DNA of 43,962 bases from Gaiellales bacterium (GTDB taxonomy: Bacteria; Actinomycetota; Thermoleophilia; Gaiellales; F1-60-MAGs149), in the NCBI GenBank assembly GCA_049433345.1, contig JBMTER010000001.1, positions 1 to 43,962 of the forward strand, given 5' to 3'. Under the pieces are notes generated by a model. The model did not search any database. It was not told the DNA's origin and saw nothing but the letters and a program-made list of their open reading frames with translations. The first letter of the stretch is position 1. Each line of letters begins with the position of its first letter. The position numbers and the translations under genes are program-made. Below are positions 1,751 through 30,008 of the stretch, piece by piece.

Positions 1751-1758
1751 GGACGTCC

Positions 1759-3497: not shown

Positions 3498-3507
3498 GCC
3501 GCTCGGC

Positions 3508-3704: not shown

Positions 3705-3765
3705 GGCCCTATGGTGATGACTATCTCAAAGAGCCTCTAACCACTTCAACCACCATGGGAATCGC
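3705..3765. other. AT-richer segment, candidate DNA-unwinding element (also the dnaN leader)
   Basis: ggccctatggtgatgactatctcaaagagcctctaaccacttcaaccaccatgggaatcgc. By hand count it is roughly half G+C, in a window that is otherwise far more G+C-rich. It directly follows the last DnaA-box-like site. Confidence 0.4.
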
Positions 3766-4866: not shown

Positions 4867-4868
4867 CG

Positions 4869-6397: not shown

Positions 6398-6400
6398 TAA

Positions 6401-11474
<5,074 letters not shown>

Positions 11475-13547: not shown

Positions 13548-13605
13548 GCGGCTACGATACCCGCGTGGACCGCGAACCCCGCCGTCGCCCGCCTGGGAGG
13601 GCCCG

Positions 13606-14049
13606 ATGACCGCCATGGACCGAGCGGCGATCGAGGCCGTCATCCCGCACCGCGACCCGTTCCTCCTCGTCGACGAGATCGTCGAGCTCGAGCCCGGCGT
13701 GCGCGCCCACGGACGCTGGACGATCACCGGCGACGAGTGGTTCCTGCCCGGGCACTTCCCCGGCAATCCGATCGTGCCGGGCGTGATCATGGTCGAGGCG
13801 ATGGCCCAGACCGCGGCCGTCTGCGCCCTCACGCATCCCGACCACGCGGGCAAGTTCGGGGTCTTCGCGGGGATCGACGGCGTGCGCTTCCGGCGCATCG
13901 TGCGGCCCGGCGACGTGCTCGACATGGTGATCACGGTGGATCGGCTGCGCGGTCGCATCGGGCGGGTCAACGGCGAGGCGACGGTCGGCGGCGAGCCCGC
14001 CGTCGAGGGCGTGCTCACGTTCGGCCTGCTCGAGGAGCCGCCCGCGTGA
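13606..14049 (+). CDS. fabZ: 3-hydroxyacyl-ACP dehydratase FabZ
   Basis: ATG 13606 is preceded by GGGAGG. Motifs: IPHRDPFLLVDEI and HFPGNPIVPGVIMVEAMAQ (hot-dog dehydratase signature). Confidence 0.92.
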   Translation: MTAMDRAAIEAVIPHRDPFLLVDEIVELEPGVRAHGRWTITGDEWFLPGHFPGNPIVPGVIMVEAMAQTAAVCALTHPDHAGKFGVFAGIDGVRFRRIVRPGDVLDMVITVDRLRGRIGRVNGEATVGGEPAVEGVLTFGLLEEPPA

Positions 14050-15038: not shown

Positions 15039-15958
15039 CCATCGCCTTCTGCTTTCCGGGCCAGGGCTCCCAGGCCGTCGGGATGGGCGTCGCCTTCGCG
15101 GACGCCTCGCCGGCTGCCGCGGCCGTTTTCGCCGAGGCCTCCGATGCCTTCGGCGACGATCTGCTCGGGCTCTGCAGGACCGGACCCCAGGAGGGCCTCG
15201 ACCGGACCGAGATCACGCAGCCCGCACTCACGGCGGCCTCCTGCGCGTGCCTGGCCGCCGTCCGCGAGGCCGGCCTCGACGCGGAGGTGGCGATCGGGCA
15301 CTCGGCGGGCGAGTACGCGGCGCTCGTCGCCGCCGGAATCCTGGGCGTCGGCGCCGCCGTGCGCCTGACCCCCCCGCGGGGCGAGGCGACGGCCGCCGCT
15401 GCCGCCCGCACGCCGGGCGCGATGGCCGCCGTGATCGGCCTTGAGGACGCCGAGGTGGAGGGGCTCTGCGACGGCATCGACGGGGTCTGGGTCGCGAACT
15501 ACAACTGCCCGGGCCAGATCGTCGTCTCGGGGGAGGACGCCGCAGTCGACCTGCTCGTCGCGGCCGCCGGCGAGGCCGGCGCGCGGCGGGCGATCAAGCT
15601 GGCCGTGTCGGGCGCGTTCCACTCGCCGTTGACGGCGGCCGCGGCCGACGACCTGCGACCCGCGCTCGAGGCCGTGACGTTCGCGCCGCCCGCGATCGGG
15701 TTCTTCTCGACCGTCACCTGCCGGCGTGAGGACGAGACCGGCCTGGCGGCGATCCTGATGGACCAGCTCGGCGCTCCCGTCCGCTTCACGCAGGCGATCC
15801 GGTCGCTCGCGGCTGACGGCGTCGGCACGTTCGTCGAGGTCGGGCCCGGCAACGTCCTCAGCGGCCTGATCCGCCGGATCGACCGCGACCTGACCGCTCT
15901 CTCGATCAGCGACCCGGAAGGGCTCGCGAAGGCACAGGAGGTGCTGGGCAATGGCTGA
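15035..15958 (+). CDS. fabD: malonyl-CoA:ACP transacylase FabD
   Basis: ATG 15035 overlaps the fabH stop (ATGA). Motifs: FCFPGQGSQAVGMG, active-site GHSAGEYAAL and VSGAFHSPL. Confidence 0.92.
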   Translation: MTIAFCFPGQGSQAVGMGVAFADASPAAAAVFAEASDAFGDDLLGLCRTGPQEGLDRTEITQPALTAASCACLAAVREAGLDAEVAIGHSAGEYAALVAAGILGVGAAVRLTPPRGEATAAAAARTPGAMAAVIGLEDAEVEGLCDGIDGVWVANYNCPGQIVVSGEDAAVDLLVAAAGEAGARRAIKLAVSGAFHSPLTAAAADDLRPALEAVTFAPPAIGFFSTVTCRREDETGLAAILMDQLGAPVRFTQAIRSLAADGVGTFVEVGPGNVLSGLIRRIDRDLTALSISDPEGLAKAQEVLGNG

Positions 15959-16706
15959 CCGACCGCTCGAGGGCCGCGTCACGCTGGTCACGGGGGGATC
16001 GCGTGGCATCGGCGCCGCGATCGCACGTGACCTGGCGGCGCACGGCGCCAAGGTCGCCGTCAACTACGCGGCCAATCGCGACGCGGCCGACGCCGTCGTC
16101 GCCGAGATCGGCGCCGCGGGCGGCACCGCCGTCGCGATCGGCGGCGACGTGGCCGATCCGGAGCAGGCCGCCGCGATGGTCGACCAGGCGGAGGAGGCGC
16201 TCGGCGACGACCTCTGGAACCTCGTCGCGAACGCCGGCATCACCCGCGACAACCTGATCTCGCGGATCACCCCGGAGGACTGGCAGCGCGTGATCGACGT
16301 CAACCTCGGTGGCACCTTCCACGTCTGCCGGGCCGCGTCGCGCAAGCTGCTGCGCAAGAAGCGCGGCGCGATCGTGACGATGTCGAGCGTGGTCGGCCTG
16401 CACGGCAACTTCGGGCAGACGAACTACGCGGCCTCGAAGGGCGGCGTGATCAGCCTGACCAAGGCCCTGGCGAAGGAGGTCGGATCGCGCGGCATCCGCG
16501 TCAACTGCGTCGCCCCGGGCTACATCTCGACGGAGCTGACCGACGTGCTCCCGGACGAGATCCGCGACGCGCTGCTCGCGCAGACCCCGCTCGGTCGCCT
16601 CGGCGAGCCGGAGGACATCGCCGGCACCGTGCGCTTCCTGCTCTCCGATGAGGCCGCGTTCGTCACCGGCGCCGTGCTGTCGGTCGACGGCGGCCTGGGG
16701 ATGTAG
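15951..16706 (+). CDS. fabG: 3-oxoacyl-ACP reductase FabG (SDR)
   Basis: 251-aa ORF overlapping fabD by 8 nt. Motifs: VTGGSRGIGAAIA, NAGI, and the catalytic YAASKGG. Confidence 0.9.
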   Translation: MADRPLEGRVTLVTGGSRGIGAAIARDLAAHGAKVAVNYAANRDAADAVVAEIGAAGGTAVAIGGDVADPEQAAAMVDQAEEALGDDLWNLVANAGITRDNLISRITPEDWQRVIDVNLGGTFHVCRAASRKLLRKKRGAIVTMSSVVGLHGNFGQTNYAASKGGVISLTKALAKEVGSRGIRVNCVAPGYISTELTDVLPDEIRDALLAQTPLGRLGEPEDIAGTVRFLLSDEAAFVTGAVLSVDGGLGM

Positions 16707-16708
16707 CC

Positions 16709-17953
16709 GTGCGTCGCGTCGTCGTCACCGGGATGGGGACCGTGAACCCCATCGCCAACAGCATCCCGGAGTTGGACGTCGCATTGCGCGAGGGCCGCTC
16801 CGGCGGTGCGCTGATCACGTCGTTCGACATCGCGGAGAGCCCGGTCAAGATCGGCTGCGAGGTGAAGGGCTTCGACCCCGAGGCCGTGATGGACCGCAAG
16901 GCGGCGCGGCGCACCAGTCGCTTCATCCACCTTGCGGTGGGGGCGGCCCGCGAGGCGGTCGAGTCGTCCGGCCTCGACATCCCGCCGGAGGGCGAGCGCG
17001 TGGGCGCCTCCATCGCGAGCGGCATCGGCGGCATGGACATGCAGCTCCTCGCCCATGCGCACTACCTGGAGAAGGGCATCGAGCGCTTCTCGCCGTTCTG
17101 GACGCCGGGGATCATCCCCAACATGGGCGCGGGCTACGTGTCGATGGAGTTCGGGACGCGGGGACCGCTCGCCTCGTCGAGCACGGCCTGTGCGGCGTCG
17201 TCGATGGCGATCGGCGACGCGGTCATGTACATCCGGGCCGGCATGGCCGATGCGATGCTCGCGGGCGGGGCCGAGTGCGGCGTCGTGCCGGTCGGCATCG
17301 GCGGCTTCCACGGGATCCGCGCGTGCTCGACCCGCAACGACGACCCGGCGGGCGCGAGCCGGCCCTTCGACGCGACCCGCGACGGCATCGTGCTCGGCGA
17401 GGCCGGCACGGTGCTCGTCCTGGAGGAGCTCGGGCATGCGCAGCGGCGCGGTGCGGAGATCCTCGCCGAGGTGACGGGCTACGGACTGTCGTCGGATGCG
17501 CGCCACGTCACCGAGCCGGATCCGACCGGCGAGAACCCGGCCCGCGCGATCACGAACGCGCTCGCGGACGCGGGCCGCAGCGCCGACGAGGTCGAGTACG
17601 TCAACGCCCACGGCACGTCGACTCCGGTCGGCGACGCCGCGGAGACGCGGGTGCTGAAGCGCGTCTTCGGGGAGCGCGCCCCACGGGTGCCGATCTCGTC
17701 GACGAAGTCGATGACGGGACACCTGCTGGGCGCCACCGGGGCGACGGAGGCGGCGATCTGCGTCCTCGCGATCCGCAACGGGTACGTGCCACCGACGATC
17801 AACCTGCACCATCCGGACCCCGAGTGCGATCTCGACTACGTCCCGAACGCCCTGCGCGAGCAGTCCGTCGGCGTCGCGATCTCGAACGGCTTCGGATTCG
17901 GCGGGCACAATGCGTGCCTGGTGATCGAGCGGTACGAGGAGAAGCGCGCCTGA
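16709..17953 (+). CDS. fabF: beta-ketoacyl-ACP synthase II FabF
   Basis: 414-aa ORF starting at GTG 16709, 2 nt after the fabG stop. Motifs: VVVTGMG, active-site STACAAS, NAHGTSTPVGD, and KSMTGHLLGATG with GFGGHNACL. Confidence 0.93.
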   Translation: MRRVVVTGMGTVNPIANSIPELDVALREGRSGGALITSFDIAESPVKIGCEVKGFDPEAVMDRKAARRTSRFIHLAVGAAREAVESSGLDIPPEGERVGASIASGIGGMDMQLLAHAHYLEKGIERFSPFWTPGIIPNMGAGYVSMEFGTRGPLASSSTACAASSMAIGDAVMYIRAGMADAMLAGGAECGVVPVGIGGFHGIRACSTRNDDPAGASRPFDATRDGIVLGEAGTVLVLEELGHAQRRGAEILAEVTGYGLSSDARHVTEPDPTGENPARAITNALADAGRSADEVEYVNAHGTSTPVGDAAETRVLKRVFGERAPRVPISSTKSMTGHLLGATGATEAAICVLAIRNGYVPPTINLHHPDPECDLDYVPNALREQSVGVAISNGFGFGGHNACLVIERYEEKRA

Positions 17954-18906
17954 TGGCCCCCGTCGAGGTCGACGTCGAACGGCCGGCTGGCGGCGACGAT
18001 CCGGGGCGCCGGCATCCGAACACGTGCCCGTCCTGCCGCTCGCACTACCGCGACGACGAGCTCCGCCACGCGCTCCGGGTCTGCGCGCAATGCGGTCACC
18101 ACTTCGCGGTCGGGGCGCTGGAGCGGATCGACCAGATCACCGACCCGGGCAGCTTCGTGGAGATCGGCGATGAGCTGCGCGCTGCCGACCCGCTGGCCTT
18201 CGTCGACCTGCGTCCCTACACCGACCGGCTGCTCGACGCCGAGCTCGCCACCGGCCTCGGTGACGCGCTCGTCGCGGGCACGGGGCTGATCGTCGGCCGG
18301 CCGGCGGCGCTGGCCGTGATGGACTTCGCCTTCATGGGCGGATCGATGGGCAGCGTGATGGGCGAGCGGTTCTGCCTCGCCGCCGACGCGGCCCTGGAGC
18401 GGGGGATCCCGCTGATCAGCGTCACCGCGTCCGGTGGGGCCCGCATGCAGGAGAACATCCTCGCGCTGATGCAGATGGCGAAGACCGTCGGCGCGGTCGA
18501 CCAGCTGCGCGAGGTCGGGGTCCCCTACATCTCGGTGCTCGCGCATCCGACCACCGGCGGCGTGATCGCCTCCTTCGCCTCCCTCGGGGACATCGTGATC
18601 GCCGAGCCGAACGCGCTCCTGTCGTTCGCCGGCCCGCGGGTCGTCGAGCAGACGACGGGGGAGAAGACCGCTCCCGACTTCGGGCGCGCGGAGTCGAACC
18701 TGCGCCTCGGCCAGCTCGACGCCGTCGTGCCGCGGCGCGAGCTGCGGGGCGAACTGGGTCGGCTGCTGCTCCTGTTCTCGCCGACGGAGGACGAGCCCAC
18801 CGGTGAGCAGGGCCCTCGGCCCCTGCCCGAGGACGTCACCCTCGCGGGCGCGGGACCGGTCGATCGCGTGCTCGGCCGCATCGGACTGGGGCGTCGTCGT
18901 GGTTAG
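17953..18906 (+). CDS. accD: acetyl-CoA carboxylase carboxyltransferase beta subunit AccD
   Basis: ATG 17953 overlaps the fabF stop by 1 nt (TGATG). It has an N-terminal zinc ribbon CPSC...CAQC, then AFMGGSMGSVMGE and SGGARMQE. Confidence 0.9.
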   Translation: MAPVEVDVERPAGGDDPGRRHPNTCPSCRSHYRDDELRHALRVCAQCGHHFAVGALERIDQITDPGSFVEIGDELRAADPLAFVDLRPYTDRLLDAELATGLGDALVAGTGLIVGRPAALAVMDFAFMGGSMGSVMGERFCLAADAALERGIPLISVTASGGARMQENILALMQMAKTVGAVDQLREVGVPYISVLAHPTTGGVIASFASLGDIVIAEPNALLSFAGPRVVEQTTGEKTAPDFGRAESNLRLGQLDAVVPRRELRGELGRLLLLFSPTEDEPTGEQGPRPLPEDVTLAGAGPVDRVLGRIGLGRRRG

Positions 18907-19783
18907 GGTCACCGACGAGGTACGACGCCTGCGCAAGCGCTTCGAGGCGCGGGCCGAGGAGTCGCAGGTCTGGGATGCGGTGCAGCTGGCGCGGCACGCC
19001 GAGCGGCCGTACACGCTCGACTACGCCGAGCGCCTGTTCACGGACGCGTTCGAGCTGCGTGGCGACCGGGCCTTCTCCGACGACGAGGCGCTGATCACGT
19101 TGCTGGCCCGCTACCACGGCCAGACGGTCGTCGCGATCGGCCACCAGAAGGGCCGCGACCTGGCGGAGCGGACGCGGCGAATGTTCGGGATGCCGCATCC
19201 GGAGGGGTACCGCAAGGCGATCCGCGCCGTCGAGCTCGCTGATCGCTTCGGCTATCCCGTCCTGACCTTCGTCGACACGCCCGGTGCGTATCCGGGCGTG
19301 AACGCGGAGGAGCGCGGCCAGGCCGGCATGATCGCCCGCTCGATCCTCGCGTTCTGCCAGGCGTCGGTGCCGATCGTGAGCACCGTGATCGGCGAGGGCG
19401 GCTCGGGTGGCGCGCTCGCCATCGCGGTCGGCGACCGCGTGCTGATGCAGGAGAACGCGATCTACAGCGTGATCTCCCCCGAGGGCTGCGCGGCGATCCT
19501 CTGGAAGGACGCAGGCCAGGCGCGCAAGGCCGCGTACGCCTTCCGGCCGACGGCGGGCGCCTGCCTCGACCTCGGCGTCGTCGATGCGATCGTGGATGAG
19601 CCCCGGGGCGGCGCGCACGAGGACGCCGATGAGGCGGCGCGCCTGCTCGATCAGGCGATCCGCGGCGCGCTCGCCGAGGCTGAGGCGATCTCGCCTGCGG
19701 CCCGCCGTGCCGCGCGCCGGGCGAAGTTCCGGCAGATGGGCGTGTGGGGCGTCGCCGATGAGGCCGGCGGCACGGTCGCCTGA
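18899..19783 (+). CDS. accA: acetyl-CoA carboxylase carboxyltransferase alpha subunit AccA
   Basis: Putative GTG 18899, giving an 8-nt overlap with accD. Motifs: ERPYTLDY, MFGMPHPEGYRKA, FVDTPGAYPGV and IGEGGSGGALA. The exact start is uncertain. Confidence 0.87.
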   Translation: MVRVTDEVRRLRKRFEARAEESQVWDAVQLARHAERPYTLDYAERLFTDAFELRGDRAFSDDEALITLLARYHGQTVVAIGHQKGRDLAERTRRMFGMPHPEGYRKAIRAVELADRFGYPVLTFVDTPGAYPGVNAEERGQAGMIARSILAFCQASVPIVSTVIGEGGSGGALAIAVGDRVLMQENAIYSVISPEGCAAILWKDAGQARKAAYAFRPTAGACLDLGVVDAIVDEPRGGAHEDADEAARLLDQAIRGALAEAEAISPAARRAARRAKFRQMGVWGVADEAGGTVA

Positions 19784-19784
19784 G

Positions 19785-20645
19785 TCACGGCACGAGCGGA
19801 AACGGGCGTCGCGCCAGGCCGATCGCGGCCTGCGCCGATACCCACACCGGGGTGATCGGGACGCCGCGCTGGTACGCGATCGAGCCGTCTGACCGGGCCA
19901 GGCGCCGCAGGTGCGCCTCGGCCGCGGCGTCGCGGCGACCGGCCGCGGCGAGGCCCTGGATCACCCAGGCCGTCGACTGGGCGTCGGACCGCGCACCTCG
20001 GGTCAGGGCATAGCCGCCATCCGCGGTGCGGAAGCGCCTGAGCGCGCGCAGCGCGCGTCGAATGCGGGGGTCGGAGCGCGGTACCCCGGCGGCGACGGCC
20101 GCTGCGATGCCGGATGCGGTGAGGTTCGAATCGCCGTCTCCGCCGGGCGCGACCGGCCAGCTGCCGTCCGGGTTCTGGTCGCGCAGGAGCGTGGCCCGCG
20201 CGGCCGCGGGTACGCGGCGCCCGAGCGCCCGCAGCGCGAGGATCCCGAACTGGTTCGAGGCCACTGTGGGACCGATCCGTCCGCCGCGAAGCTGACGTGT
20301 CAGCAGCGTGGTCAGGTTGCGGCCGCCGGCCCGTCGGGGATCGCGTCCCGCGGCGACCAGGGCGAGGATCGCGATCTGGACGTCGGTCGCCGAGCGCAGC
20401 TCGCCCGAGCGGCTGGCGATGCAGCCCGCCGCGGCGGAGGCGGAGCGGCCGGCGGCGACCAGGCCGAGGGCGGCCCAGGCGGTCAGGTTCGCCGACGGCG
20501 CGCCGCCGGGTTCAGCGGCGCAGCCGCGGGCATCGAGGCTGTTCGTCAGATAGGTCCCGACCCGGACCAACTCGGGGCTGCGTGCGCCTCCCGCGGCCGG
20601 TGCGAGCAGGAGCAGCGCGAGCGCGAGCAGCACCGCGCGCGTCAC
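19785..20645 (-). CDS. secreted prenyltransferase/squalene-oxidase-repeat (alpha/alpha-toroid) protein, last gene of the B12-riboswitch operon
   Basis: GTG 20643-20645 overlaps the upstream stop (GTGA) and is preceded by GGGGGAGG. It has the signal peptide VTRAVLLALALLLLAPAAGGA. Repeats of the prenyltransferase-like type are present: QNPDGSWP, TADGGYAL...AQSTAWVIQGLAAAG, SDGSIAYQ. Confidence 0.7.
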   Translation of the reverse strand: MTRAVLLALALLLLAPAAGGARSPELVRVGTYLTNSLDARGCAAEPGGAPSANLTAWAALGLVAAGRSASAAAGCIASRSGELRSATDVQIAILALVAAGRDPRRAGGRNLTTLLTRQLRGGRIGPTVASNQFGILALRALGRRVPAAARATLLRDQNPDGSWPVAPGGDGDSNLTASGIAAAVAAGVPRSDPRIRRALRALRRFRTADGGYALTRGARSDAQSTAWVIQGLAAAGRRDAAAEAHLRRLARSDGSIAYQRGVPITPVWVSAQAAIGLARRPFPLVP

Positions 20646-21274
20646 GGTCCCGCCTCCCCCGCGGTCGGCGGCGTGGTCCAGCGTCCGCGGACGCGGACGG
20701 CGCTGCGATCGACGAGAGCGATCAGCGAGGGACCGGTGAGGCCGAGGATGGTGGCCGTCGCGACTGCGTGGGCGATGTCGAAGGGAACCGCGCGCACGTG
20801 GATCGCCGCGAATGCGGTCAGGGACAGGGACGGCCCGAACGCGGCCAGTTGCCAGACGTCCATCAGGGCGCCGAACGCCGCGGAGACGACGACGCCGAGA
20901 CCGACGAGCGCCCAGCGCGAACGCCGCAGCGTCGGGGCGAGCAGGCCGCCCGCGAGTCCGGCGGCCCCCCACAGCAGCATCTGCCACGGCGTCCACGGGC
21001 CCTGGCCGAGGAAGGCGTTCGACACGAGGGCGCTACCGGCGCCGACGGCGACGCCGGCACGGGGTCCGAGCGCGACGCCCGCGATGATGGCGATCGCGGT
21101 GATGGGCTGGGCGCCGGGCACGGCGACGAAGAGGACGCGTCCGGCGCTGGCCGCGGCTATCAGCACGGCGACCAGCCCGATCTCTCGCGAGCCGGACCGG
21201 CCGCGCTCGTAGAGGGCGAGCCCGGCGACCAGGAGGACGAGCCCGCCGAGGGCGACCAGCGCTCCCGCGCTCAT
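20642..21274 (-). CDS. ECF-transporter S-component-like integral membrane protein
   Basis: Last 210 codons of ORF 20642..22483. ATG 21272-21274 overlaps the ATPase stop (ATGA). It is a roughly six-TM hydrophobic protein with AQPITAIAIIAGVALGPRAGVAVGAGSALVSNAFLGQGPWTPWQMLLWG, which I recognise as ECF S-component-like. Confidence 0.68.
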   Translation of the reverse strand: MSAGALVALGGLVLLVAGLALYERGRSGSREIGLVAVLIAAASAGRVLFVAVPGAQPITAIAIIAGVALGPRAGVAVGAGSALVSNAFLGQGPWTPWQMLLWGAAGLAGGLLAPTLRRSRWALVGLGVVVSAAFGALMDVWQLAAFGPSLSLTAFAAIHVRAVPFDIAHAVATATILGLTGPSLIALVDRSAVRVRGRWTTPPTAGEAGP

Positions 21275-22671
21275 CGTGCCGCCTCGCGTACCGCCTCGGG
21301 AATGGGCTCGCCGGTCACCAGTCGCCCATCGCCGACGATCCAGAGCGCGTGCGCGGTGGCGCGCACGAAGGCCCGGTCGTGCGTGGCGGTGATCACCGAG
21401 AGGCCTCGGGCGTGACGCTCGCCGAGGATTCGCACGAGAGTCGCCCGGTGCGCGGCGTCCATGCCTCGGGTCGGCTCGTCGAGGAGCAGAATCGTGGGAT
21501 CGACGGCGAGGGCCGCGGCGATCGCGACGCGCTCGCGCTCGCCGACGGAGAGATCGCGCGGATGCCGCTCGAGCAGTTCCGACAGGCCGAGGTCGGCGAT
21601 CGCGCGGTCGGCCGGGCCCGGGGGCATGCCGAGCGCGTCCGCGCCGCGGCGTATCTCCGCCTCCGCCGTCGCCTCGAGCAGCGTGCGCCCGGGATCCTGC
21701 GGCACGAGGCGGATCTCCGGCACTCGCTCGGCGGCGGGAACGCCTGTGAGATCGCGGCGCGCGGTCCGGATCGCGCCCGCGAGCGGGGCGTCGAGGCCCG
21801 CGATCGCGCGCATGAGCGTCGACTTGCCGGCGCCGTTCGGTCCGGTCTGGGCGATCGACGCCCCCGTGGGGCGCGAGGCGCTGGCGCCGCGCAGGACGCG
21901 CCGCCCGCCGCGGTCGAGCTCGACCCCCTCGAGGACGAGCGCCGGCTCGGCCGCGCGCCCGGGGGCGGGCGCCGACCGCGGGTAGGACGGTGCGGCGGGT
22001 GCAGCGCCGATGCGACCGGCGACGATCCCCAGCACCTCGTCTGCCAGGTGCCCGACGCGGTCGGTGCGGTGTTCGGAGATCACGATCGCCAGGCCGCGGT
22101 CCGCGAAGCGGCGCAGGTGGCCGACGAGCTCGCAGGCGGCGTCGTCGTCGAGCTGGGCGGTGGGCTCGTCGAGCAGGAGCAGGGCGGGCTCGGGGGCCAG
22201 CACGGCGGCGAGGGCGACGCGCTGGCGCTCGCCGCTCGAAAGGGCATCGAGGCGCCGGCCGACCAGGTGCTCGCAGCCGACGGCGGCGAGCGCTGCGCGC
22301 GCCGCCGGCAGGATCCGCTCCTGCGCCCAGCCCCGGCACTGCAGTCCGTAGGCGACGTCCCGGAGCGTCTCGCCCATGACACCCTGGGCCTCGGGCTCCT
22401 GGAACAGGAAGCCGATCCGCTGCGCGAGGGCGCTCGGCTGGGCGGTGCGCAGGTCCAGTCCGGCGACGCTGCCGACGCCCCATGCCTCGCCGCCGTGGAA
22501 GGCCGGCGCGAGACCGGCGAGGACGCGAAGCAGGGTGGTCTTGCCGCCGCCGGATGGTCCTTCGAGGATCACGATCCGGCCCGGATCGACGACGAGGTCG
22601 ATGTCTCGCAGGCTCGGCGTGTCGGCACCGGGGTAGCGGTAGCCCACGCCTGCCAGCGCGATCGCGCTCAT
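21271..22671 (-). CDS. ECF transporter ATPase, fused EcfA-EcfA' (two ABC domains)
   Basis: ATG 22669-22671 lies within ORF 21271..23229. Each ABC motif occurs twice: Walker A (GPSGGGKTT; GPNGAGKST), signature (LSSGERQRV; LSVGERERV) and Walker B (LLLLDEPT; ILLLDEPT). Confidence 0.9.
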   Translation of the reverse strand: MSAIALAGVGYRYPGADTPSLRDIDLVVDPGRIVILEGPSGGGKTTLLRVLAGLAPAFHGGEAWGVGSVAGLDLRTAQPSALAQRIGFLFQEPEAQGVMGETLRDVAYGLQCRGWAQERILPAARAALAAVGCEHLVGRRLDALSSGERQRVALAAVLAPEPALLLLDEPTAQLDDDAACELVGHLRRFADRGLAIVISEHRTDRVGHLADEVLGIVAGRIGAAPAAPSYPRSAPAPGRAAEPALVLEGVELDRGGRRVLRGASASRPTGASIAQTGPNGAGKSTLMRAIAGLDAPLAGAIRTARRDLTGVPAAERVPEIRLVPQDPGRTLLEATAEAEIRRGADALGMPPGPADRAIADLGLSELLERHPRDLSVGERERVAIAAALAVDPTILLLDEPTRGMDAAHRATLVRILGERHARGLSVITATHDRAFVRATAHALWIVGDGRLVTGEPIPEAVREAAR

Positions 22672-23507
22672 CGCGGGCCTCGCAGCATCCGTGCCGAGGC
22701 TGCGCCGGCGCCGATCACGGCCGCGGCTCCAGCGAGCGCGGGGAGCGTGGCGATGGGATCGGCCTGCGGGTAGATCGCGTAGGGGAGCGTCCCGACGGCG
22801 AGCGCGATGGCGAGAAGGATCAGCCCGACGCCGACGAGCAGGGCGACCCGGACGGCGCGCGGTGCCGGATCCTCCGGCAGCTCGGTGAACGCGCCACCAC
22901 CGTAGCCGCGAGCCGCCATCGCCTCGGCGATGCCGACACCGCGGTCGAGGCTCGACGCGACGAGGGGCTCGACGAGGGCGGCCGCCTGCCGGGCCCGCGC
23001 GCGCCGTCCCGACTCCGCCCCGGTGCCGCGCAGGACGAGGGCCTCGCGAAGATCGGCTGCGTCGCGACGCAGCGCGGGTACGAGGCGGGCGGAGAGTGCC
23101 ACCGTCAGGGCCGAACGCGGCGCGATCCGCGCGACCAGCCCCTGCAGCCGGTCCGGATCGGCGAGGGCCAGGAACGCGGACGTCGCGATGATCGCCGTCG
23201 CGAGGCGCATGCCGCTGACGGCGCCCCACAGGAGCTCCTCCGCGGTGACCTCGAAGTCGACCAGCGAGAAGCCGGGACCCGACAGCAGCACGCGGTCGCC
23301 GGCGACGGCGAGGAACGGATTGAGCACCAGCAGCAGGAGGCCGGAGGTCGCCGCGAGACGCAGCATCAGACCATGGTCCACCGGTGCCGATCGGTAGAGC
23401 AGCACCGATGCGACGAGGGCAGCCGCCACCAGGGCCGGCTGGTCCGTGGCCAGCGATACGCCGATCAGCCCGGCGCAGACCACGAGGGGCGCACGCGGAT
23501 CGTTCAC
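22668..23507 (-). CDS. ECF transporter T component (CbiQ/EcfT family)
   Basis: 279-aa ORF with a GTG start overlapping the upstream stop (GTGA). It is a polytopic membrane protein. A central Arg-rich coupling-helix-like region (ALSARLVPALRRDAADLREALVLRG) is typical of CbiQ/EcfT. It lies adjacent to the ECF ATPase. Confidence 0.8.
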   Translation of the reverse strand: MNDPRAPLVVCAGLIGVSLATDQPALVAAALVASVLLYRSAPVDHGLMLRLAATSGLLLLVLNPFLAVAGDRVLLSGPGFSLVDFEVTAEELLWGAVSGMRLATAIIATSAFLALADPDRLQGLVARIAPRSALTVALSARLVPALRRDAADLREALVLRGTGAESGRRARARQAAALVEPLVASSLDRGVGIAEAMAARGYGGGAFTELPEDPAPRAVRVALLVGVGLILLAIALAVGTLPYAIYPQADPIATLPALAGAAAVIGAGAASARMLRGPR

Positions 23508-24406
23508 AGGGTCAGTCCCTGCCCGCCGCTGCAGGCGATCAGGCCCTCCTCGTCCAGGCAGATCGCGAAGTGCCGCGGCGGTAGCCGCGGGTTCGCGGCG
23601 AGCGCGGCCGCCGCCGCGGCCGCATCGGCCTCGCTCCGGCCCGCGATCACCACCACGGGCGCGCCGCTCGCCGTGAAGTCCTCAGTCGTGGCCACCACCA
23701 CGGCACGCGCCTTCGGAACGGGAACGGCGGCTCCGGCGGCGGCATCCCAGACGACGATCCGATCATCGTCGAACCAGGCGGTCAGGCCGGCGCGCTGCGG
23801 GTCCCGCAGCGCGGCACGCCACGTCGGATCGCGCTCGGCCAGCGAGGAGCTCGCTCCGCTGATCGCCCTCGGGCCGCTCGTCGCAGCGGGGGTCACGGCC
23901 TCCACGCCGGCTGCCGCGAGGGCGGTGGCGGCGGCGGGATCGGCGGTCACGTCCGCCACCTTCGCGCGCAGGCCCCGAGACAGGGGCGCCGGCCACTGCC
24001 CGATGATCGCCGGCACGTGGATGCGACCGGCCCAGCGGTGGAGATCCCACCAGACCGCATGCTCCGGGCCGACCTCGACCTCGGACGCGCCCACGTCCGC
24101 CTCGATCCCGTTGACCCAGAACAGCCACTCGCGGTCGCCGTCGCCGGCCTCGCCGTCGATCGCGCTGACGTAGCGACCGCCGTAGGTGGTCTCAACGGGG
24201 ACGACGGCCTCGGTGACGGACAGGACGGAGCCGGCGGGACCGCGACCCTCCGCGACCTTCGTGCGGCCCCAGTCGGCGGTGACGATCACGAAGGTCCCGG
24301 AGTCGACCGGCGCAGCGGCCGACTCCGGGGTTCCCTCTGTCTTCGACGTCCCGCATGCGGCCAGCACGAGGACGGCGACGAGCGCGCATGCGAGACGCGG
24401 GTTCAT
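23504..24406 (-). CDS. lipoprotein with DUF4430 (transcobalamin-like C-terminal) domain plus an uncharacterised C-terminal half
   Basis: 300-aa ORF with signal peptide and lipobox LVLAAC. Its DUF4430-type segment is YGGRYVSAIDGEAGDGDREWLFWVNGIEADVGASEVEVGPEHAVWWD. Confidence 0.7.
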   Translation of the reverse strand: MNPRLACALVAVLVLAACGTSKTEGTPESAAAPVDSGTFVIVTADWGRTKVAEGRGPAGSVLSVTEAVVPVETTYGGRYVSAIDGEAGDGDREWLFWVNGIEADVGASEVEVGPEHAVWWDLHRWAGRIHVPAIIGQWPAPLSRGLRAKVADVTADPAAATALAAAGVEAVTPAATSGPRAISGASSSLAERDPTWRAALRDPQRAGLTAWFDDDRIVVWDAAAGAAVPVPKARAVVVATTEDFTASGAPVVVIAGRSEADAAAAAAALAANPRLPPRHFAICLDEEGLIACSGGQGLTL

Positions 24407-24424
24407 GGCCTCAGGACGCTCGGG

Positions 24425-25105
24425 CTACGAGCCCATCGGCGCGAGGACGGCCTGGGAGTCGATCGCGCCCTTCATGGTCGCGACCGCCACGTCCCAGTCG
24501 CTGCCCGGATCGAGGTCGACGCTGAGAACGCCCTTCGCGTCGGTCACGCCGAGCGACACCCCGTCGGCGATCACGGACGCGCCCTTCGCCGCCTTCCAGC
24601 CCTTGCCGGAGGAGGTGCGCACCGTGAACACCGTGGTCCCGGAGGCGGTTACGCGATGGCGCAGATCGAGTACCGACGGGCCCCTTCTCGCGTAATTGCC
24701 GTCGAGGACCCAGAGCGCCCGATCCGACCGCTTCAGGACGAGCGAGCCGGCACCGACCGAGGCGGCCCTGCCGTTGACCCAGAGCATCCACGCGCCTCTG
24801 GCGCCGACGCGGATGGTGCCGATCGACTTCACGTACGGGCCCAGTCCGGCGAATTCGCTGACGACCAGAGGCGTGCCGGCGAAGGAGGTCGCCGCGACCA
24901 GCTGGCCGAGGGCGGTCTTGCGCGGCAGCATCATCGCGGTGCGGGAGTCGTTCACGTACGACCTGGCGCTGCCGGACACCCATTCGCGGTTGCCGAGCAG
25001 GCCACCCTGCTCGGTGGTGACGCGGATCGTCGCGGCCTGCGCGACGGCGGGGATGACCATGGTCGCGAGGGCGACGATGGTCACGAGGATCGTCCTCGTG
25101 GACAT
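24425..25105 (-). CDS. secreted DUF4430 (transcobalamin-like C-terminal) domain protein, first gene of the B12-riboswitch operon
   Basis: ATG 25103-25105 is preceded by GAAGGAG. The 226-aa product is the C-terminal part of ORF 24425..25924. It has the signal peptide MSTRTILVTIVALATMVIPAVAQA. Its DUF4430-type segment is GPYVKSIGTIRVGARGAWMLWVNGRAASVGAGSLVLKRSDRALWVLD. Confidence 0.7.
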   Translation of the reverse strand: MSTRTILVTIVALATMVIPAVAQAATIRVTTEQGGLLGNREWVSGSARSYVNDSRTAMMLPRKTALGQLVAATSFAGTPLVVSEFAGLGPYVKSIGTIRVGARGAWMLWVNGRAASVGAGSLVLKRSDRALWVLDGNYARRGPSVLDLRHRVTASGTTVFTVRTSSGKGWKAAKGASVIADGVSLGVTDAKGVLSVDLDPGSDWDVAVATMKGAIDSQAVLAPMGS

Positions 25106-25144
25106 CTGGAACTCCTTCTCTCGAGGTCCCCGGGCCGTCTGGTC

Positions 25145-25340
25145 CGAGGGGAGGTGGGTGTTCTGACTCGGCGCGCGCTTCCTCGGCTTCCCGAGGCCCC
25201 CGGACCCTGCCTTCCCAGCTCCGAGGAGCCAGTGACCGGTGCGCTGCACCGCGAACGGGGGACGTGCCTTACAGCGGCGGGACCGTGCCGGACTCGCACC
25301 GGACTTCCCCTGCCTCCGAACGCGACGGTAGCACACGCGC
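25145..25340 (-). promoter_or_regulatory. cobalamin (B12) riboswitch
   Basis: The minus-strand RNA reads GGAGGCAGGGGAAGUCCGGUGCGAGUCCGGCACGGUCCCGCCGCUGUAAGG ... GGUCACUGG ... CUGGGAAGGC ... GAGUCAGAACACCCACC. All conserved blocks of the cobalamin aptamer are present in the right order. These include the B12 box (plus-strand ttctgact at 25161-25168). It lies directly upstream of the 25105 start. Confidence 0.88.
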
Positions 25341-25364
25341 CGAGGCCTCCGCCATACTCGCGGA

Positions 25365-26873
25365 ATGCCCGAGCGCCTTCCCCGGCCCCGCATCGAGGGG
25401 CAGCACCTCGCCGTCTCGTGCGGCCACCCGCTCGCCGTCCAGGCCGGACTGCGCGTGGGTGCTGCCGGGGGCAACGCGATCGACGCGGCGGCGGCCGCGG
25501 CAGCCGCGCTGACGGTGATCCTCCCGGACGCCTGCGGGCTCGGAGGCGACCTGCTCTGCATCGTGCGCCGGGCCGACGGCACCGTCACGGCGATCAACGG
25601 CGTCGGTCGCTCGCCCGCCGCCAGCCGGCACCCGCTGCCGGAGGATGGGGCACAGGTGGCGGCGGTGCCGGGCTTCGTCGCCGGCGTCTGCGACCTGATC
25701 GACGCTGGCGGTCGGCTGTCACGGGCCGAGGTGCTCGCGCCGGCCCTCGAGCTGGCGGAGCACGGCGTCGCCGTGACCCGGGACACCGCGGAGGCGCTGG
25801 TCGCCAGTGCGGACCGCCTGACGCGAGGCGGAGCCGACGACTCGCCATGGGTCGCAGCCCGCCCGCGGGGCGCCGGGGCGATCGTGCGCCTGCCGCAGAC
25901 CGCCGCGACGTTGCGGGCCGTCATCGACGGAGGAGCCGAGGCGTTCTACTCGGGCCCGATCGCCGAGGCGATCGTGGCCGCGGTGGCGCGGGAGGGCGGG
26001 GTCATGGCGCTCGCCGACCTCGCCGGCCACGAGAGCGTCATCCGCGACCCCGTCGCCGTCGACTACCGCGGTACGACGGTCCTCGCACAGCCGCCGTCGT
26101 CACAGGCGATGCTGCTCACGATGGCGCTGCGTCGGCTTGCGGTCGAGCCGCGGTCCGATGCCTCGGCGGCGGCCCAGCACCGAGCCATCGAGGCCATCGC
26201 GGGCGCGTTCGCCTATCGCGATCGGATCACCGAGGATGGCGCCGACCGCGGACTGATGGATCTCGCCGACACGATCGCGATCGGGCCGCGGGCGAGTCGC
26301 GCTGATCACGCCCAGGGCTACAACCACACGACGTCGGTGACGGCGGCGGACCGCGAGGGCAACGTCGTGTCGATGCTGATCAGCGTCTTCGACAGCTTCG
26401 GCTGCGCGACGTGGGTCCCGGAGGGCGGCTTCTTCCTCAACGACCGGCTGCTCTCGTTCTCGCGCGACCCCGCCTCCCCGAACGCGGCCGCCGGAGGCAA
26501 GCGCCCCGTGCACACGCTGTCGCCGGCGATGCTCGTCGCGGGCGATCGCATCGTGGGCATCTCGACGCCGAGCGCGGACGGGCAGGTGCAGGCGCTCCTG
26601 CAGGTCGTGCTCGCGCACCTCGACGAGGGGCTGGATCTCGGTGACGCCTGCGACCGGCCACGCTGGCGCGTGGTGGGCGATCGACTGCACGTCGAGCAGG
26701 ATGCCGAGCGGGAGCTCACGGATGCCCTCGCCGCCCTCGGCCACGCGGTCGTAGCGGCGGAGGTCGGGGATAGCCTCTTCGGCAGCGTCTGCGCGGCGGA
26801 GGCGGACCTCGGCTCCGGCCTCGTGTCCTGCTGGGCGGATCCGCGCCGCGAGTCGTGGGCGGGGGCCTGGTAG
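25365..26873 (+). CDS. ggt: gamma-glutamyltransferase family protein (Ntn hydrolase)
   Basis: 502-aa ORF with N-terminal GHPLAVQAGLRVGAAGGNAIDAA. The autoprocessing/nucleophile Thr context is GYNHTTSVTAADREGNVVSMLISV, followed by GFFLNDRL. No obvious signal peptide. Confidence 0.87.
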   Translation: MPERLPRPRIEGQHLAVSCGHPLAVQAGLRVGAAGGNAIDAAAAAAAALTVILPDACGLGGDLLCIVRRADGTVTAINGVGRSPAASRHPLPEDGAQVAAVPGFVAGVCDLIDAGGRLSRAEVLAPALELAEHGVAVTRDTAEALVASADRLTRGGADDSPWVAARPRGAGAIVRLPQTAATLRAVIDGGAEAFYSGPIAEAIVAAVAREGGVMALADLAGHESVIRDPVAVDYRGTTVLAQPPSSQAMLLTMALRRLAVEPRSDASAAAQHRAIEAIAGAFAYRDRITEDGADRGLMDLADTIAIGPRASRADHAQGYNHTTSVTAADREGNVVSMLISVFDSFGCATWVPEGGFFLNDRLLSFSRDPASPNAAAGGKRPVHTLSPAMLVAGDRIVGISTPSADGQVQALLQVVLAHLDEGLDLGDACDRPRWRVVGDRLHVEQDAERELTDALAALGHAVVAAEVGDSLFGSVCAAEADLGSGLVSCWADPRRESWAGAW

Positions 26874-26904: not shown

Positions 26905-29163
26905 CTAGGAGGCGAGCTCGTCGAGCAGGGTGATCGCGCCCGCCTTGTCCAGCGGCTCGTTCAGCCAGGGGCACGAGAAGCTGTGGATGCAGCCGGGACA
27001 GCCGTCGTCGCAGGGGCAGTCGGCGGCGATCGACCGGGCCGTCGCGGCGATCTCGGCGAGGTCGCCGAAGGCGGCGCGGACGATCCCGGCGCCACCGGGG
27101 CGCGACTCGTGCAGCACGATCACGGGCGTTCCGGTGTCGGGGTGCTCATCGGCGGAGAGGCCGAGCAGGTCGCCGGTGTCGCACGGGACGCGCAGCGGCA
27201 GCGCTGCGGAGAGCAGGTGCTCGGCCGCGTGCAGCGCACCCAATCCGGGTTCCTCGTCCGACGGGGGACGTTGCAGCCAGAGCGCCGCCGTCCGGTACTC
27301 GCGCGCCGGCAGGTCGAGCGCGTGCTGGTCGATGACCGACAGGTCGTCGACGCGCCGACGCTGGTAGCCGATCACCTGCGATCGCACGTCGGCCGTGCCG
27401 AGGCAGGCCCGCCACGAGCCGAGCCAACCCTCCTGATCCGAGGTCCCGAGGGCGACGCTGCTGTGCGCGCGGGGTACGGTGAACCAGTCGCCGGAGAACG
27501 GCTCGACGACGGCCTCGCCGCGTGCGAGGTCGAGCTCGCGCACCACGTAGCGCTCGCCCTGGCTGAGGTGCACGGCGCCGGGGTGGACGGCGAGGGGCGC
27601 CCGCTCGTGCTCCACGTCGCCGAGCACGGTGCCCGTCGTGGCGTCGACGATCGCGACGACGCGGGCGTCGGCGCTGCGCAGGGAGACGCGCGACGCGGGA
27701 TCGTCGGGACCCGCCCAGATCAGGCCGGCGCGCGTCACGGCGAAGTCCTCGGGAGCCAGTTCGAGCACCGCCTCGGCGTCGTCGACGATGCTGACGCCGA
27801 GGATGCCGGCGTCGCGCTCCGACACGGCGGCCTCGGCGGCGGCGCAGGCGAGGTGGGCGAGACGGATGTCCGGGTTCGACGGGTCGAGCGCGACGCGCTC
27901 GACCGGGCGCTCCAGCAGGGCCGTCGGGTGGCGCGCGAACCACTGGTCGAGCGCGTCCTCGCCGAGCACGAGGACCCCGAGCCCGCGGCTGCGCCGGCCG
28001 GCTCGTCCCCACTGCTGGCGCAGGGCCGCGACCGAGCCGGGGAAGCCGACGATCACGGCGCAGTCGAGCTCGCCGATGTCGATGCCGAGCTCGAGGGCGC
28101 TCGTCGCGATCACGGCCCGCAGGTCACCGCTGGCGAGGCGCGCCTCGATCGCGCGGCGGGCCTCAGGGGGATAGCCCGCGCGGTACGGCTCGATCCGATC
28201 GGAGAGGGCGGGCGCCCGCCGACCCAGCTCATCGCGGACCCCGCGCAGGATCAGCTCGACCAGCTGTCGTCCCGGGGCGAAGCAGATCACCCGCTGCCCG
28301 TCGACCACGAGCTGGCTGACCAGGCCGACGGCCTCGTGGATCCTCGACGCGCGCCGGCCGCTGGCGGGGTCGAGCAGGGCGGGGTTCCAGAGGGCGATGT
28401 CGCGGCCCGGGGACGACGCCTCGTCCGCATCGACGACCTGCACGTCGCACCCGCTCAGCAGGCTGAACGCCTCGGCCGGGTTGGCGACCGTGGCCGAGGC
28501 GAGCAGGAGCTGCGGCGAGGCGCCGTAGATCGCGGCGAGGCGGCGCAGGCGTCGCAGCACGTGCGCCACGTGGGATCCGAACACGCCGCGGTAGACGTGT
28601 GCCTCGTCGACGATGATCGCGGCGAGCCCGGCCAGCCATTCGTCCCAGCGCTGGTGGTGCGGGCAGATGCCGAGGTGGACCATGTCGGGGTTCGACAGGA
28701 CGAAGTTGGCCTCAGCGCGAGCCCGTCGCCGCGTACCGGCATCCTGGTCGCCGTCGACCAGCGCGACCCGCAGGTCGCGGCCGAGGCCGAGAGCGGCCAG
28801 ACGCCGAGCCTGATCCTGCGCGAGGGCCTTCGTCGGCGACAGGTAGAGCGCGCGGGTGTGCGGCTCGCGCAGGAGCAGATCGAGGACGGGAATCGCGTAG
28901 GCCAGCGTCTTGCCGCTGGCGGTGCCCGACGCGATCCCGACGTGGTCGCCGCGCCGGGCCCGATCGATCGCCTCGGCCTGATGCGACCAGAGCCGCTCCA
29001 CGCCGCTCCGGGCGAGGGCGGCGACGAGACGCGGGTCGAGGCCGGATGGCAGCGGCAGGGATCGGCCGGGGCGGGCTGGTTCGTCGATACGGTGGACGAG
29101 GCGGCCGTCGTCGGGTCCGGCGCCGATCGCCAGGGCCGTGTCCCACGGACGCCGGTCGGTCAC
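26905..29163 (-). CDS. DEXH-box helicase with C-terminal DUF1998 zinc-binding domain (MrfA/YprA-like)
   Basis: GTG 29161-29163 overlaps the pheA stop (GTGA); the ORF track extends to 29304. Motifs: Walker A GTASGKTLAY and DEAH box IIVDEAHVYRG. The helicase C-domain has ATSALELGIDIG and QQWGRAGR. The C-terminal Cys cluster is CPCDDGCPGCIHSFSC. Confidence 0.87.
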   Translation of the reverse strand: MTDRRPWDTALAIGAGPDDGRLVHRIDEPARPGRSLPLPSGLDPRLVAALARSGVERLWSHQAEAIDRARRGDHVGIASGTASGKTLAYAIPVLDLLLREPHTRALYLSPTKALAQDQARRLAALGLGRDLRVALVDGDQDAGTRRRARAEANFVLSNPDMVHLGICPHHQRWDEWLAGLAAIIVDEAHVYRGVFGSHVAHVLRRLRRLAAIYGASPQLLLASATVANPAEAFSLLSGCDVQVVDADEASSPGRDIALWNPALLDPASGRRASRIHEAVGLVSQLVVDGQRVICFAPGRQLVELILRGVRDELGRRAPALSDRIEPYRAGYPPEARRAIEARLASGDLRAVIATSALELGIDIGELDCAVIVGFPGSVAALRQQWGRAGRRSRGLGVLVLGEDALDQWFARHPTALLERPVERVALDPSNPDIRLAHLACAAAEAAVSERDAGILGVSIVDDAEAVLELAPEDFAVTRAGLIWAGPDDPASRVSLRSADARVVAIVDATTGTVLGDVEHERAPLAVHPGAVHLSQGERYVVRELDLARGEAVVEPFSGDWFTVPRAHSSVALGTSDQEGWLGSWRACLGTADVRSQVIGYQRRRVDDLSVIDQHALDLPAREYRTAALWLQRPPSDEEPGLGALHAAEHLLSAALPLRVPCDTGDLLGLSADEHPDTGTPVIVLHESRPGGAGIVRAAFGDLAEIAATARSIAADCPCDDGCPGCIHSFSCPWLNEPLDKAGAITLLDELAS

Positions 29164-30008
29164 GGCTCGGTGGGGCGCTGCGCCGCCGGAAAGGACCCGA
29201 GCACGACGAGCAGCGCCGAGCGGCCGCGCACGTCGTCGAGCGCGCGAGTGACCTGCGGGTCGTCCCGGTGACCCTCGATGTCGATCAGGAACTGGTACCG
29301 CCACGGCTCGCCCGGGATCGGACGCGAGTGCAGGGAGACCATGTTGACCCCGTGGTAGCGGAACGGTTCAATCGCGTCGTGCAGCGCACCCGGCTGGTGC
29401 CCGGTCACGAGGCGCAGCGCCGTCTTCCACGACACCCCGGTGGCGATCGGGAGCCCCTCGCGGGCGATCGCCACGAACCGGGTCATGTTGTCCGGATGGT
29501 CGGAGATGTCGCTCTCGAGGATCTCGAGGCCGAAGCGTCGAGCGGCGGCCGGCGATGCGATGGCGGCCCATGCGGGATCGTTCTGCTCGGCCACGATCCG
29601 CGCCGCATCGGCCGTGGTCGGCGCCCCGATCTCCTCGTACGACCCGTTCAGGAAGGTCCGGCACTGGGCGAGGGCGACGGGATGCGAGTGGATGCGCTGT
29701 ACGCCGGCCGTCGTCGCCCCCGGCACGCCGCACAGGCAGTGCGGGATGTGGATGACGGTCTCGGCGACGATCGGCAGCGCGCCGTCGGCGATCAGGTCGC
29801 AGGTGTCGGCGACGATCCCGGCGAGGGTGTTCTCGATCGGGAGGACGCCGACGTCGACCGTTCCGGCGGCGACGGCGTCACGCACGTCGGCGAAGCTGCC
29901 GGTCGACACCGCGTCGACGTCGGGGTACAGCCGCTCCGCGGCTTCGGAGGTGTACGACCCGGCGCTGCCGGGGTAGGCGACGGTGCGTGGTGCGGTGATG
30001 TTCGTCAT
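29160..30008 (-). CDS. pheA: prephenate dehydratase (PDT + ACT domains)
   Basis: I prefer ATG 30006-30008 (MTNITAPRTVAYPGSAGSYT); the ORF track start at 30038 is the alternative. It has the PDT signature NMTRFVAI and the ACT region GALHDAIEPFRYHGVNMVSLHSRPI...WRYQFLIDIEGH. Confidence 0.87.
   Translation of the reverse strand: MTNITAPRTVAYPGSAGSYTSEAAERLYPDVDAVSTGSFADVRDAVAAGTVDVGVLPIENTLAGIVADTCDLIADGALPIVAETVIHIPHCLCGVPGATTAGVQRIHSHPVALAQCRTFLNGSYEEIGAPTTADAARIVAEQNDPAWAAIASPAAARRFGLEILESDISDHPDNMTRFVAIAREGLPIATGVSWKTALRLVTGHQPGALHDAIEPFRYHGVNMVSLHSRPIPGEPWRYQFLIDIEGHRDDPQVTRALDDVRGRSALLVVLGSFPAAQRPTEP

Follow-up and report, generated by a model that had tools for sequence, protein, structure and literature searches.

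A cobalamin riboswitch-linked, CbrT-type ECF operon with three exported proteins in Thermoleophilia: a candidate system for corrinoid capture and import

The present study concerns a stretch of 43,962 nucleotides from a Gaiellales bacterium (contig JBMTER010000001.1, positions 1-43,962; G+C 72.9%; hereafter, the window) and, within it, an operon that follows a cobalamin riboswitch and encodes an energy-coupling factor (ECF) transporter together with three exported or lipid-anchored proteins. Six open reading frames (ORFs), g1 to g6, run in the same direction on the minus strand at 19785-25105, with the riboswitch 5′ of g1; their starts were set by start-codon context. g1 (24425-25105, 226 aa) is a secreted SLBB/DUF4430 protein with a Sec signal (...AVAQA/ATIRV) and a C-terminal Ig-like domain resembling CarboxypepD_reg, and g2 (23504-24406, 300 aa) is a lipoprotein (lipobox LAAC) in which an N-terminal SLBB/DUF4430 domain precedes a C-terminal domain of ~160 aa. 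The next three, none of which has an N-terminal feature, form the transporter core: g3 (22668-23507, 279 aa) is an EcfT/CbiQ-type transmembrane coupling subunit resembling CbrV, g4 (21271-22671, 466 aa) a fused EcfA-EcfA′ double ATPase resembling CbrU, and g5 (20642-21274, 210 aa) an S component of the CbrT family. g6 (19785-20645, 286 aa) is an alpha/alpha-toroid protein with a hydrophobic N-terminal signal or anchor. The first-pass annotation had described a six-gene minus-strand operon with its last five genes chained by 4-nt overlaps. The ORF calls bear this out, and GTGA/ATGA overlaps are present at all four junctions from g2 to g6 (g2/g3, g3/g4, g4/g5, and g5/g6), while g1 and g2 are 18 nt apart. 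The domain calls made there (DUF4430 twice, EcfT, fused EcfA-A′, S component, and toroid) likewise hold in Pfam and NCBIfam.

The arrangement is widely conserved. With the toroid as bait, three metagenomic contigs (42-50% identity) were found to hold the six genes in identical order within unrelated neighbourhoods. A scan of one genome per species yielded at least 515 confirmed toroid relatives; the best 80 of these were taken, and essentially all are metagenome-assembled genomes of Thermoleophilia (Gaiellales, Thermoleophilaceae, and Solirubrobacteraceae). When 83 loci (L numbers below) were searched with the six window proteins, the order g1-g2-T-AA′-S-toroid was kept wherever sufficient DNA was present, at 40-63% toroid identity and in differing genomic neighbourhoods, and the toroid gene was always the terminal gene of the riboswitch operon. 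Since it recurs in dozens of species, this arrangement stands well above chance.

Just beyond the span 19785-25105 to which the first-pass annotation had assigned the operon, positions 25157-25309 of the minus strand match RF00174 with 49.5 bits (E=1.6e-9), above the gathering score of 31.5. The cobalamin riboswitch is the sole Rfam family matched across the whole window. RF00174 also lies upstream, on the same strand, in all eight homologous loci tested at the Rfam gathering threshold (58.9-105.5 bits). A lineage covariance model (R1) built from the riboswitches of these eight loci places the aptamer in the window at 25138-25350 of the minus strand with 119 bits. The same model finds the riboswitch in 64 further loci, that is, in 64 of the 64 loci that hold the 5′ end of the operon, two pairs of which (L002/L026 and L003/L030) are apparently one contig each. 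It was unmatched in 19 of the 83 loci, 18 of which lack the 5′ end of the operon through truncation or masking; the remaining one (L052) is a solo toroid paralogue. Thus, the RF00174 match and the lineage model both support the earlier claim that a cobalamin riboswitch precedes the operon, and the proposed conservation of the gene set, together and with the riboswitch, stands on the 64 loci.

The spacer between aptamer and g1 (25106-25137, minus strand) contains, on our reading of the sequence, the Shine-Dalgarno element GAGAAGGAG (~25112-25120), 6 nt 5′ of the g1 ATG, and is likely a translational expression platform. In 62 of 63 loci, a Shine-Dalgarno-like motif and the start codon of an ORF that encodes a signal peptide follow 20-34 nt (median 23) past the aptamer, and a T-run is absent from this spacer in 62 of 63 loci. 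Transcriptional attenuation was set aside, as a search for terminator-like sites in window 19300-25900 found none. The conserved spacing, the T-run-free spacer, and the undetected terminator point to a riboswitch that would act on translation. The divergent gamma-glutamyltranspeptidase ORF on the other side starts only ~15 nt past the 5′ end of the riboswitch model (window 25332-25365). With so small a separation, either the operon promoter overlaps the beginning of the gamma-glutamyltranspeptidase gene or the start annotated for that gene lies too far upstream. A sigma-70-like promoter was not detected.

Against Pfam, g5 matched ECF-ribofla_trS at cut-off and ECF_trnsprt with 27.9 bits, slightly under the cut-off of 30.7; ECF_trnsprt was matched by 12 of 12 members of the g5 family. 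As a single sequence, g5 retrieved from the PDB chain 6fnp_A (ECF-CbrT) with E=6e-8. A profile of 12 members aligned with residues 6-178 of the 182 residues of 6fnp_A (E=3.5e-25), and this was the only chain at E≤1. Chain A was taken as CbrT from its length of 182 aa and because the entry is ECF-CbrT. By homology, g5 is thus assigned to the CbrT family of S components. CbiM, CbiN, and NikM domains were found in none of the six operon proteins (Pfam, NCBIfam), and neither CbiM nor CbiN was found in 12 S-component homologues. ECF-CbrT of Lactobacillus delbrueckii (PDB 6FNP; Santos et al. 2018, PMC5997447) is an ATP-dependent transporter of cobalamin and cobinamide with nanomolar affinity, and hemin does not inhibit it.

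The other core subunits complete the transporter. g3 matched Pfam CbiQ (E=7e-16) and, partially, TIGR02454; its translation contains two Ala-Arg motifs, SARL and AARG, of which only the second is the canonical Ala-Arg-Gly. g4 contains two Pfam ABC_tran domains (E=2e-48), exceeds the cut-off of the cbiO subfamily model TIGR01166, and has two Walker A motifs (GPSGGGKTT and GPNGAGKST), two signature motifs (LSSGERQR and LSVGERER), and two Walker B motifs. S, T, and two ATPase domains within one operon make up a complete dedicated (group I) ECF module. The first-pass annotation had proposed import of "corrinoid or cobalt". The CbrT-family S component resolves that proposal to its corrinoid half, and the cobalt half finds no counterpart here, there being no CbiM, CbiN, or NikM among the six proteins. 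Likewise, the case named there as refuting, an S-like protein that proves to be a CbiM/NikM-type metal component, did not materialise, as g5 has no CbiM match and is homologous to CbrT over its full length.

The two proteins encoded first, g1 and g2, carry the fold of the transcobalamin beta domain (SLBB). Both exceed the Pfam DUF4430 cut-off (E=2e-6 for g1 and E=2e-8 for g2), and DUF4430 was matched by 10 of 12 members of the g1 family. Their domains are homologous to one another (hhalign 97%, E=5e-11), which makes the two proteins paralogues. The g1 profile matched in the PDB the transcobalamin beta domain only, and weakly (E=0.03-0.2). The g2 profile gave no direct sequence match to transcobalamin in the PDB, so for g2 the link runs through Pfam and the fold search only. 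In its AlphaFold2 (AF2) model (pLDDT 89), the N-terminal domain is a beta-grasp, for which Foldseek returned from the PDB, as the best match, a structural-genomics entry of DUF4430 (3u7z) and, at ranks 3-19, 17 chains of transcobalamin, intrinsic factor, or haptocorrin, all aligned via their beta domains (Foldseek probability 0.89-1.0). Transcobalamin sandwiches one cobalamin between its two domains, the SLBB domain binding B12 directly, as stated in the relevant passage of PMC1796856. Because both DUF4430 proteins have this fold, the exported proteins are plausible corrinoid binders, by analogy with transcobalamin. The C-terminal ~160 residues of g2 (~140-300; window 23504-23990) are modelled with confidence and gave no PDB fold match in Foldseek. 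Two cysteines in this domain (AICLD and I-x-C-x-GG) are kept in 14 of 17 homologues. In BtuM, a cysteine is the cobalt ligand and catalyses decyanation (PMC6072759). By analogy, a cobalt-ligating or redox role is conceivable for the cysteine pair of g2.

The last gene encodes the toroid. g6 exceeded the Pfam cut-off for SQHop_cyclase_C/N and matched Prenyltrans weakly; its AF2 model (pLDDT 94.8) is an alpha/alpha toroid of 13 helices, and its top Foldseek matches are squalene-hopene cyclases and beta subunits of prenyltransferases. All of its Foldseek top 50 and all profile matches are terpene cyclases, prenyltransferases, or glycosidases. A direct link between g6 and the transcobalamin alpha domain was sought and not obtained. 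We set the register of the DxDD catalytic motif by alignment to drimenyl diphosphate synthase (SsDMS D303; deposited variants D303E/D303A). At this DxDD(TA) site g6 reads D-S-N-L-T-A. At the centre of the motif, 14 of 17 toroid homologues have Asn, 2 have Gly, and 1 has Asp; a single one (P0095) retains DTDDT. As an exported toroid without the catalytic acid, g6 is, judged from its sequence, more likely to bind a ligand than to catalyse a reaction. An active terpene cyclase was considered and judged unlikely, in view of the unconserved catalytic Asp, the export signal, and the fusion to the S component in some lineages. A solo toroid paralogue (L052, 623-1477) carries the DAGDTA motif subtype, as do P0097 and P0111, and has neither ECF genes nor a riboswitch upstream. 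It diverges from a minus-strand ORF (31-507) that resembles, by eye, a Fur-family regulator (HHxH/CxxC-type motifs). From this locus, a second, differently regulated use of the toroid appears possible. A search for a plasmid-borne annotated toroid homologue found none.

In six loci (L024, L058, L060, L062, L068, and L070; Thermoleophilaceae and Solirubrobacteraceae), S component and toroid form a single ORF, and the database proteins P0074 and P0075 are likewise single S-toroid ORFs. Pfam finds both domains within one chain (L024 and P0074). In the fusion, the former signal peptide of the toroid has become a seventh transmembrane segment; as this segment follows the positively charged stretch RFRRRFEVR, the fused toroid lies outside the membrane. 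The fusion is the strongest in silico evidence that the toroid acts at the S component. In L024 (3347-10155), the sole fusion read in detail, the fusion ORF (8329-10152, ~600 aa) has a linker transmembrane segment and a further transmembrane segment at its C terminus, and three SLBB-type genes (two g1-like and one g2-like) lie between the riboswitch and EcfT.

Taken together, the operon is best read as encoding a group I ECF importer with a dedicated module, of the CbrT/CbrTUV type, whose cargo would be corrinoids (cobalamin and/or cobinamide-like precursors). We consider it quite likely that the system imports corrinoid and that its accessory surface proteins take part in the capture. We infer corrinoid binding by g1, g2, and g6. 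A more specific proposal is that toroid and SLBB protein constitute a bacterial "split transcobalamin", which docks on a CbrT-type S component and is sometimes covalently part of it; we advance this part tentatively, its chances being somewhat short of even. At low intracellular B12, the leader would leave the Shine-Dalgarno element accessible, and the six genes would be translated as a coupled chain through their 4-nt overlaps; B12 would switch the operon off via the riboswitch. At the cell surface, g1 (free or wall-associated) and g2 (membrane-tethered) would bind corrinoid on their SLBB domains. The SLBB domain and the toroid may then enclose the corrinoid as in transcobalamin, and the toroid, beside the S component or covalently fused to it in some lineages, would deliver the ligand to it. 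The S component would subsequently topple and EcfT/EcfAA′ hydrolyse ATP, as in ECF-CbrT.

How does this operon compare with known systems? To ECF-CbrT it is linked by the full-length homology of the S component and by the general build, EcfT and two ATPase domains in an ABC importer of the ECF type. ECF-CbrT is a group II system, with the general ECF module encoded elsewhere and no exported partners, whereas the operon has a dedicated module, fused ATPases, three exported proteins, and a riboswitch. The CbrTUV naming reportedly goes back to Rodionov et al. 2009 and to SEED annotation. In comparative genomics, CbrT/CbrV/CbrU (CbrTUV, CbrUVT) is a predicted cobalamin ECF transporter (PMC6722938, PMC8123684), a dedicated set of S, T, and duplicated ATPase linked to B12 genes, on which g5, g3, and g4 map as CbrT, CbrV, and CbrU, respectively. 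However, that name spans the three core genes, and the SLBB and toroid genes lie outside its definition.

The closest precedents for the whole arrangement come from two sources. The SLBB superfamily was defined by Burroughs, Balaji, Iyer, and Aravind (2007, PMC1796856). In the passages on its bacterial members, they describe secreted SLBB proteins of a transcobalamin-like type that are associated with alpha/alpha toroids, a second SLBB gene that is paralogous, and operons with CbiO- and CbiQ-like genes, and they predict that such operons scavenge B12 or a precursor. As far as those passages go, all of these are shared with the present operon, namely a secreted SLBB protein, its paralogue, a toroid, a CbiO-like ATPase, and a CbiQ-like membrane protein. 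The same passages report SLBB-toroid fusions, mostly in low-GC Gram-positives and archaea, and mention neither an S component nor a riboswitch; here, in contrast, the toroid has its own gene or shares a polypeptide with the S component and not with SLBB, and the lineage is Thermoleophilia (Actinomycetota). The second precedent is lsa1836-1840 of Lactobacillus sakei, for which Verplaetse et al. (2019, bioRxiv 10.1101/864751), in the sections describing the locus, draw a capture-and-hand-over model with heme as cargo. By that description, the likeness extends to an S component, a fused A-A′ ATPase, a T subunit, an exported transcobalamin-beta-like protein, and an exported alpha-like toroid, the best template of the latter being a geranylgeranyltransferase. 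The L. sakei locus differs in having one SLBB protein instead of two, another gene order, and a claim for heme, and a riboswitch is not mentioned in those sections.

With the animal carriers transcobalamin, intrinsic factor, and haptocorrin, the operon shares the SLBB/DUF4430 fold of the beta domain and the partnership with an alpha/alpha toroid. In contrast, the animal proteins, which feed receptor-mediated endocytosis, are single chains that run from an alpha6/alpha6 toroid at the N terminus to a beta domain at the C terminus, whereas the operon encodes separate polypeptides that would feed a transporter, and its toroid resembles terpene cyclases more closely than it does the transcobalamin alpha domain. 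Pfam Cobalamin_bind was unmatched in the six operon proteins. The operon is therefore a further case of a known, poorly characterised kind and not a member of the transcobalamin family. BtuG is a surface accessory B12 binder encoded with its transporter. BtuH and BtuG are Bacteroides surface B12-binding lipoproteins, as described in the part of PMC8941943 devoted to them; the analogy is functional only, since their folds are unrelated and they serve diderm, TonB-dependent BtuB systems instead of ECF transporters.

Several observations weigh against corrinoid capture as proposed here. B12 riboswitches also regulate genes unrelated to B12 transport. In the window leader, a hairpin sequestering the ribosome-binding site did not fold better than shuffled sequences (z=0.77). 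As this hairpin lacks statistical support, the case for translational control leans on the conserved spacing of 20-34 nt. With only ~95 residues aligned, the g2 SLBB domain reaches no more than modest Foldseek E-values (1e-3 to 0.1). By both sequence and fold, the nearest kin of g6 are class II terpene cyclases and prenyltransferases, and the transcobalamin alpha domain is neither among its Foldseek top 50 nor among its PDB profile matches at E≤10. The ECF-CbrT of L. delbrueckii transports without accessory proteins (PMC5997447), so such proteins are mechanistically dispensable for transport. Finally, in the sole homologous system with genetics, lsa1836-1840 of L. sakei, it was heme uptake and not B12 uptake that was affected, according to the sections of bioRxiv 10.1101/864751 on these mutants. 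In our search of the DUF4430 literature, mostly judged from titles and abstracts, no corrinoid-binding tests of DUF4430 proteins were found.

The ECF core could import corrinoid while the exported proteins are no ligand relay and instead stabilise or position the S component, pass the large ligand through the cell wall, strip it from environmental binders, or process it chemically, for example by decyanation or remodelling. The self-sufficiency of CbrT in L. delbrueckii would agree with this, as would a toroid closest to enzymes, with one homologue (P0095) still carrying DTDDT, and a C-terminal domain in g2 that has no known fold and two conserved cysteines; the S-toroid fusion fits a structural role equally well. 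Yet the SLBB domains of this clade contact B12 directly in transcobalamin, the central catalytic Asp is gone in 16 of 17 toroid homologues, and two paralogous, differently anchored SLBB proteins suit a relay, and we consider this explanation unlikely, though deserving of some weight. There is a far smaller chance, in our view, that g6 is an unrelated secreted terpenoid cyclase or prenyl-binding enzyme riding in the operon. Its Pfam SQHop_cyclase matches and its top structural matches, squalene-hopene cyclases and drimenyl diphosphate synthase, are what such an enzyme would give. A passenger of this kind would hardly be expected, however, to overlap the S-component gene by 4 nt in translational coupling, to form one chain with the S component in several lineages, and to come invariably last in the riboswitch operon. 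Nor would one expect a lone toroid of ~260 aa with an export signal, in whose family 16 of 17 homologues have Asn or Gly in place of the DxDD Asp.

The remaining alternatives concern the cargo. The system could import heme, the cargo claimed for L. sakei lsa1836-1840, or another tetrapyrrole; this alternative draws on the sections of that preprint reporting that deletion and complementation altered intracellular heme and that docking placed heme between the beta-like and alpha-like proteins. Against heme stand the cobalamin riboswitch, 5′ of the operon in 64 of 64 loci, and an S component of the CbrT family, since hemin does not compete with cobalamin on CbrT; moreover, no heme-related genes were seen adjoining the operon among the neighbours inspected. 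Heme therefore seems very improbable as the cargo. Even less credit can be given to a B12-controlled ECF importer of cobalt (CbiMNQO-like) or nickel. Cobalt uptake is commonly under B12 riboswitches, and g3 and g4 do match CbiQ and the cbiO subfamily, but these labels are generic for the T and A subunits of ECF transporters. A metal importer was rejected because CbiM, CbiN, and NikM were not found and the S component matches CbrT only. Corrinoid import with capture by the accessory surface proteins thus remains the reading we favor.

The first-pass annotation had further proposed that the exported proteins form an extracellular capture layer outside the canonical ECF model. ECF transporters are defined partly by working without extracytoplasmic binding proteins. 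Here, three exported or anchored proteins, for which substrate binding is predicted, are conserved alongside the ECF core, and this part of the proposal is supported. Its novelty is not, as the idea has already been published, in the prediction of Burroughs et al. in 2007 and in the L. sakei capture scheme (the passages concerned of PMC1796856 and bioRxiv 10.1101/864751). What our analysis adds is the Thermoleophilia lineage, the quantitative linkage to a riboswitch, the placing of the S component in the CbrT family, and the S-toroid fusion, along with the recognition that the toroid is a decayed module of the terpene-cyclase type and not a demonstrable transcobalamin alpha domain.

The flanks of the operon are unrelated to it. 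accA converges on g6, and the gamma-glutamyltranspeptidase gene diverges from the riboswitch. The stops of accA (19783) and g6 (19785) are 2 nt apart, which leaves no space for a terminator between these convergent genes. accA ends a fatty-acid synthesis block (13345-19783) that reaches the operon and includes FabA/FabZ-like, FabG-like reductase, FabF-like ketoacyl synthase, and accD/accA carboxyltransferase genes. Further away, yidC (minus strand), dnaA, dnaN, gyrB, and gyrA occupy window 223-11474; the window thus begins inside the replication-origin gene cluster, with the B12 operon ~20 kb from dnaA. Beyond the gamma-glutamyltranspeptidase gene, an MrfA-type DEAD-box helicase with a C-terminal MZB zinc-binding domain (26905-29304, minus strand) is unrelated to the operon. 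Among the homologous loci, one (L001) has a tRNA-Sec gene (3108-3199) beside selA/selB directly upstream of the riboswitch, and another (L002) has an intein-containing UvrD-type helicase downstream (13236-16511).

For the annotation of these genomes, the S component can be named CbrT-like, and the labels "squalene cyclase" and "DUF4430" mislead; the capacity for B12 uptake is probably under-called in Thermoleophilia. With respect to B12 ecology, the exported proteins are candidates for corrinoid capture at very low concentrations by monoderm soil and freshwater Actinomycetota. Regarding ECF transporters, the operon family would be a riboswitch-tagged counter-example to the no-binding-protein rule, spread over ~80 species and marked by translational coupling and the S-toroid fusion. 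If the split-transcobalamin reading is true, the system would possess a genuine extracytoplasmic receptor that raises affinity or capture rate, contradicting that rule, and it would represent, in prokaryotes, the unfused state that preceded the B12 carriers of animals. The operon may serve both as a well-defined, experimentally tractable exception among ECF transporters and as a testable prokaryotic model for the origin of the two-domain (toroid plus SLBB) B12 carriers of animals.

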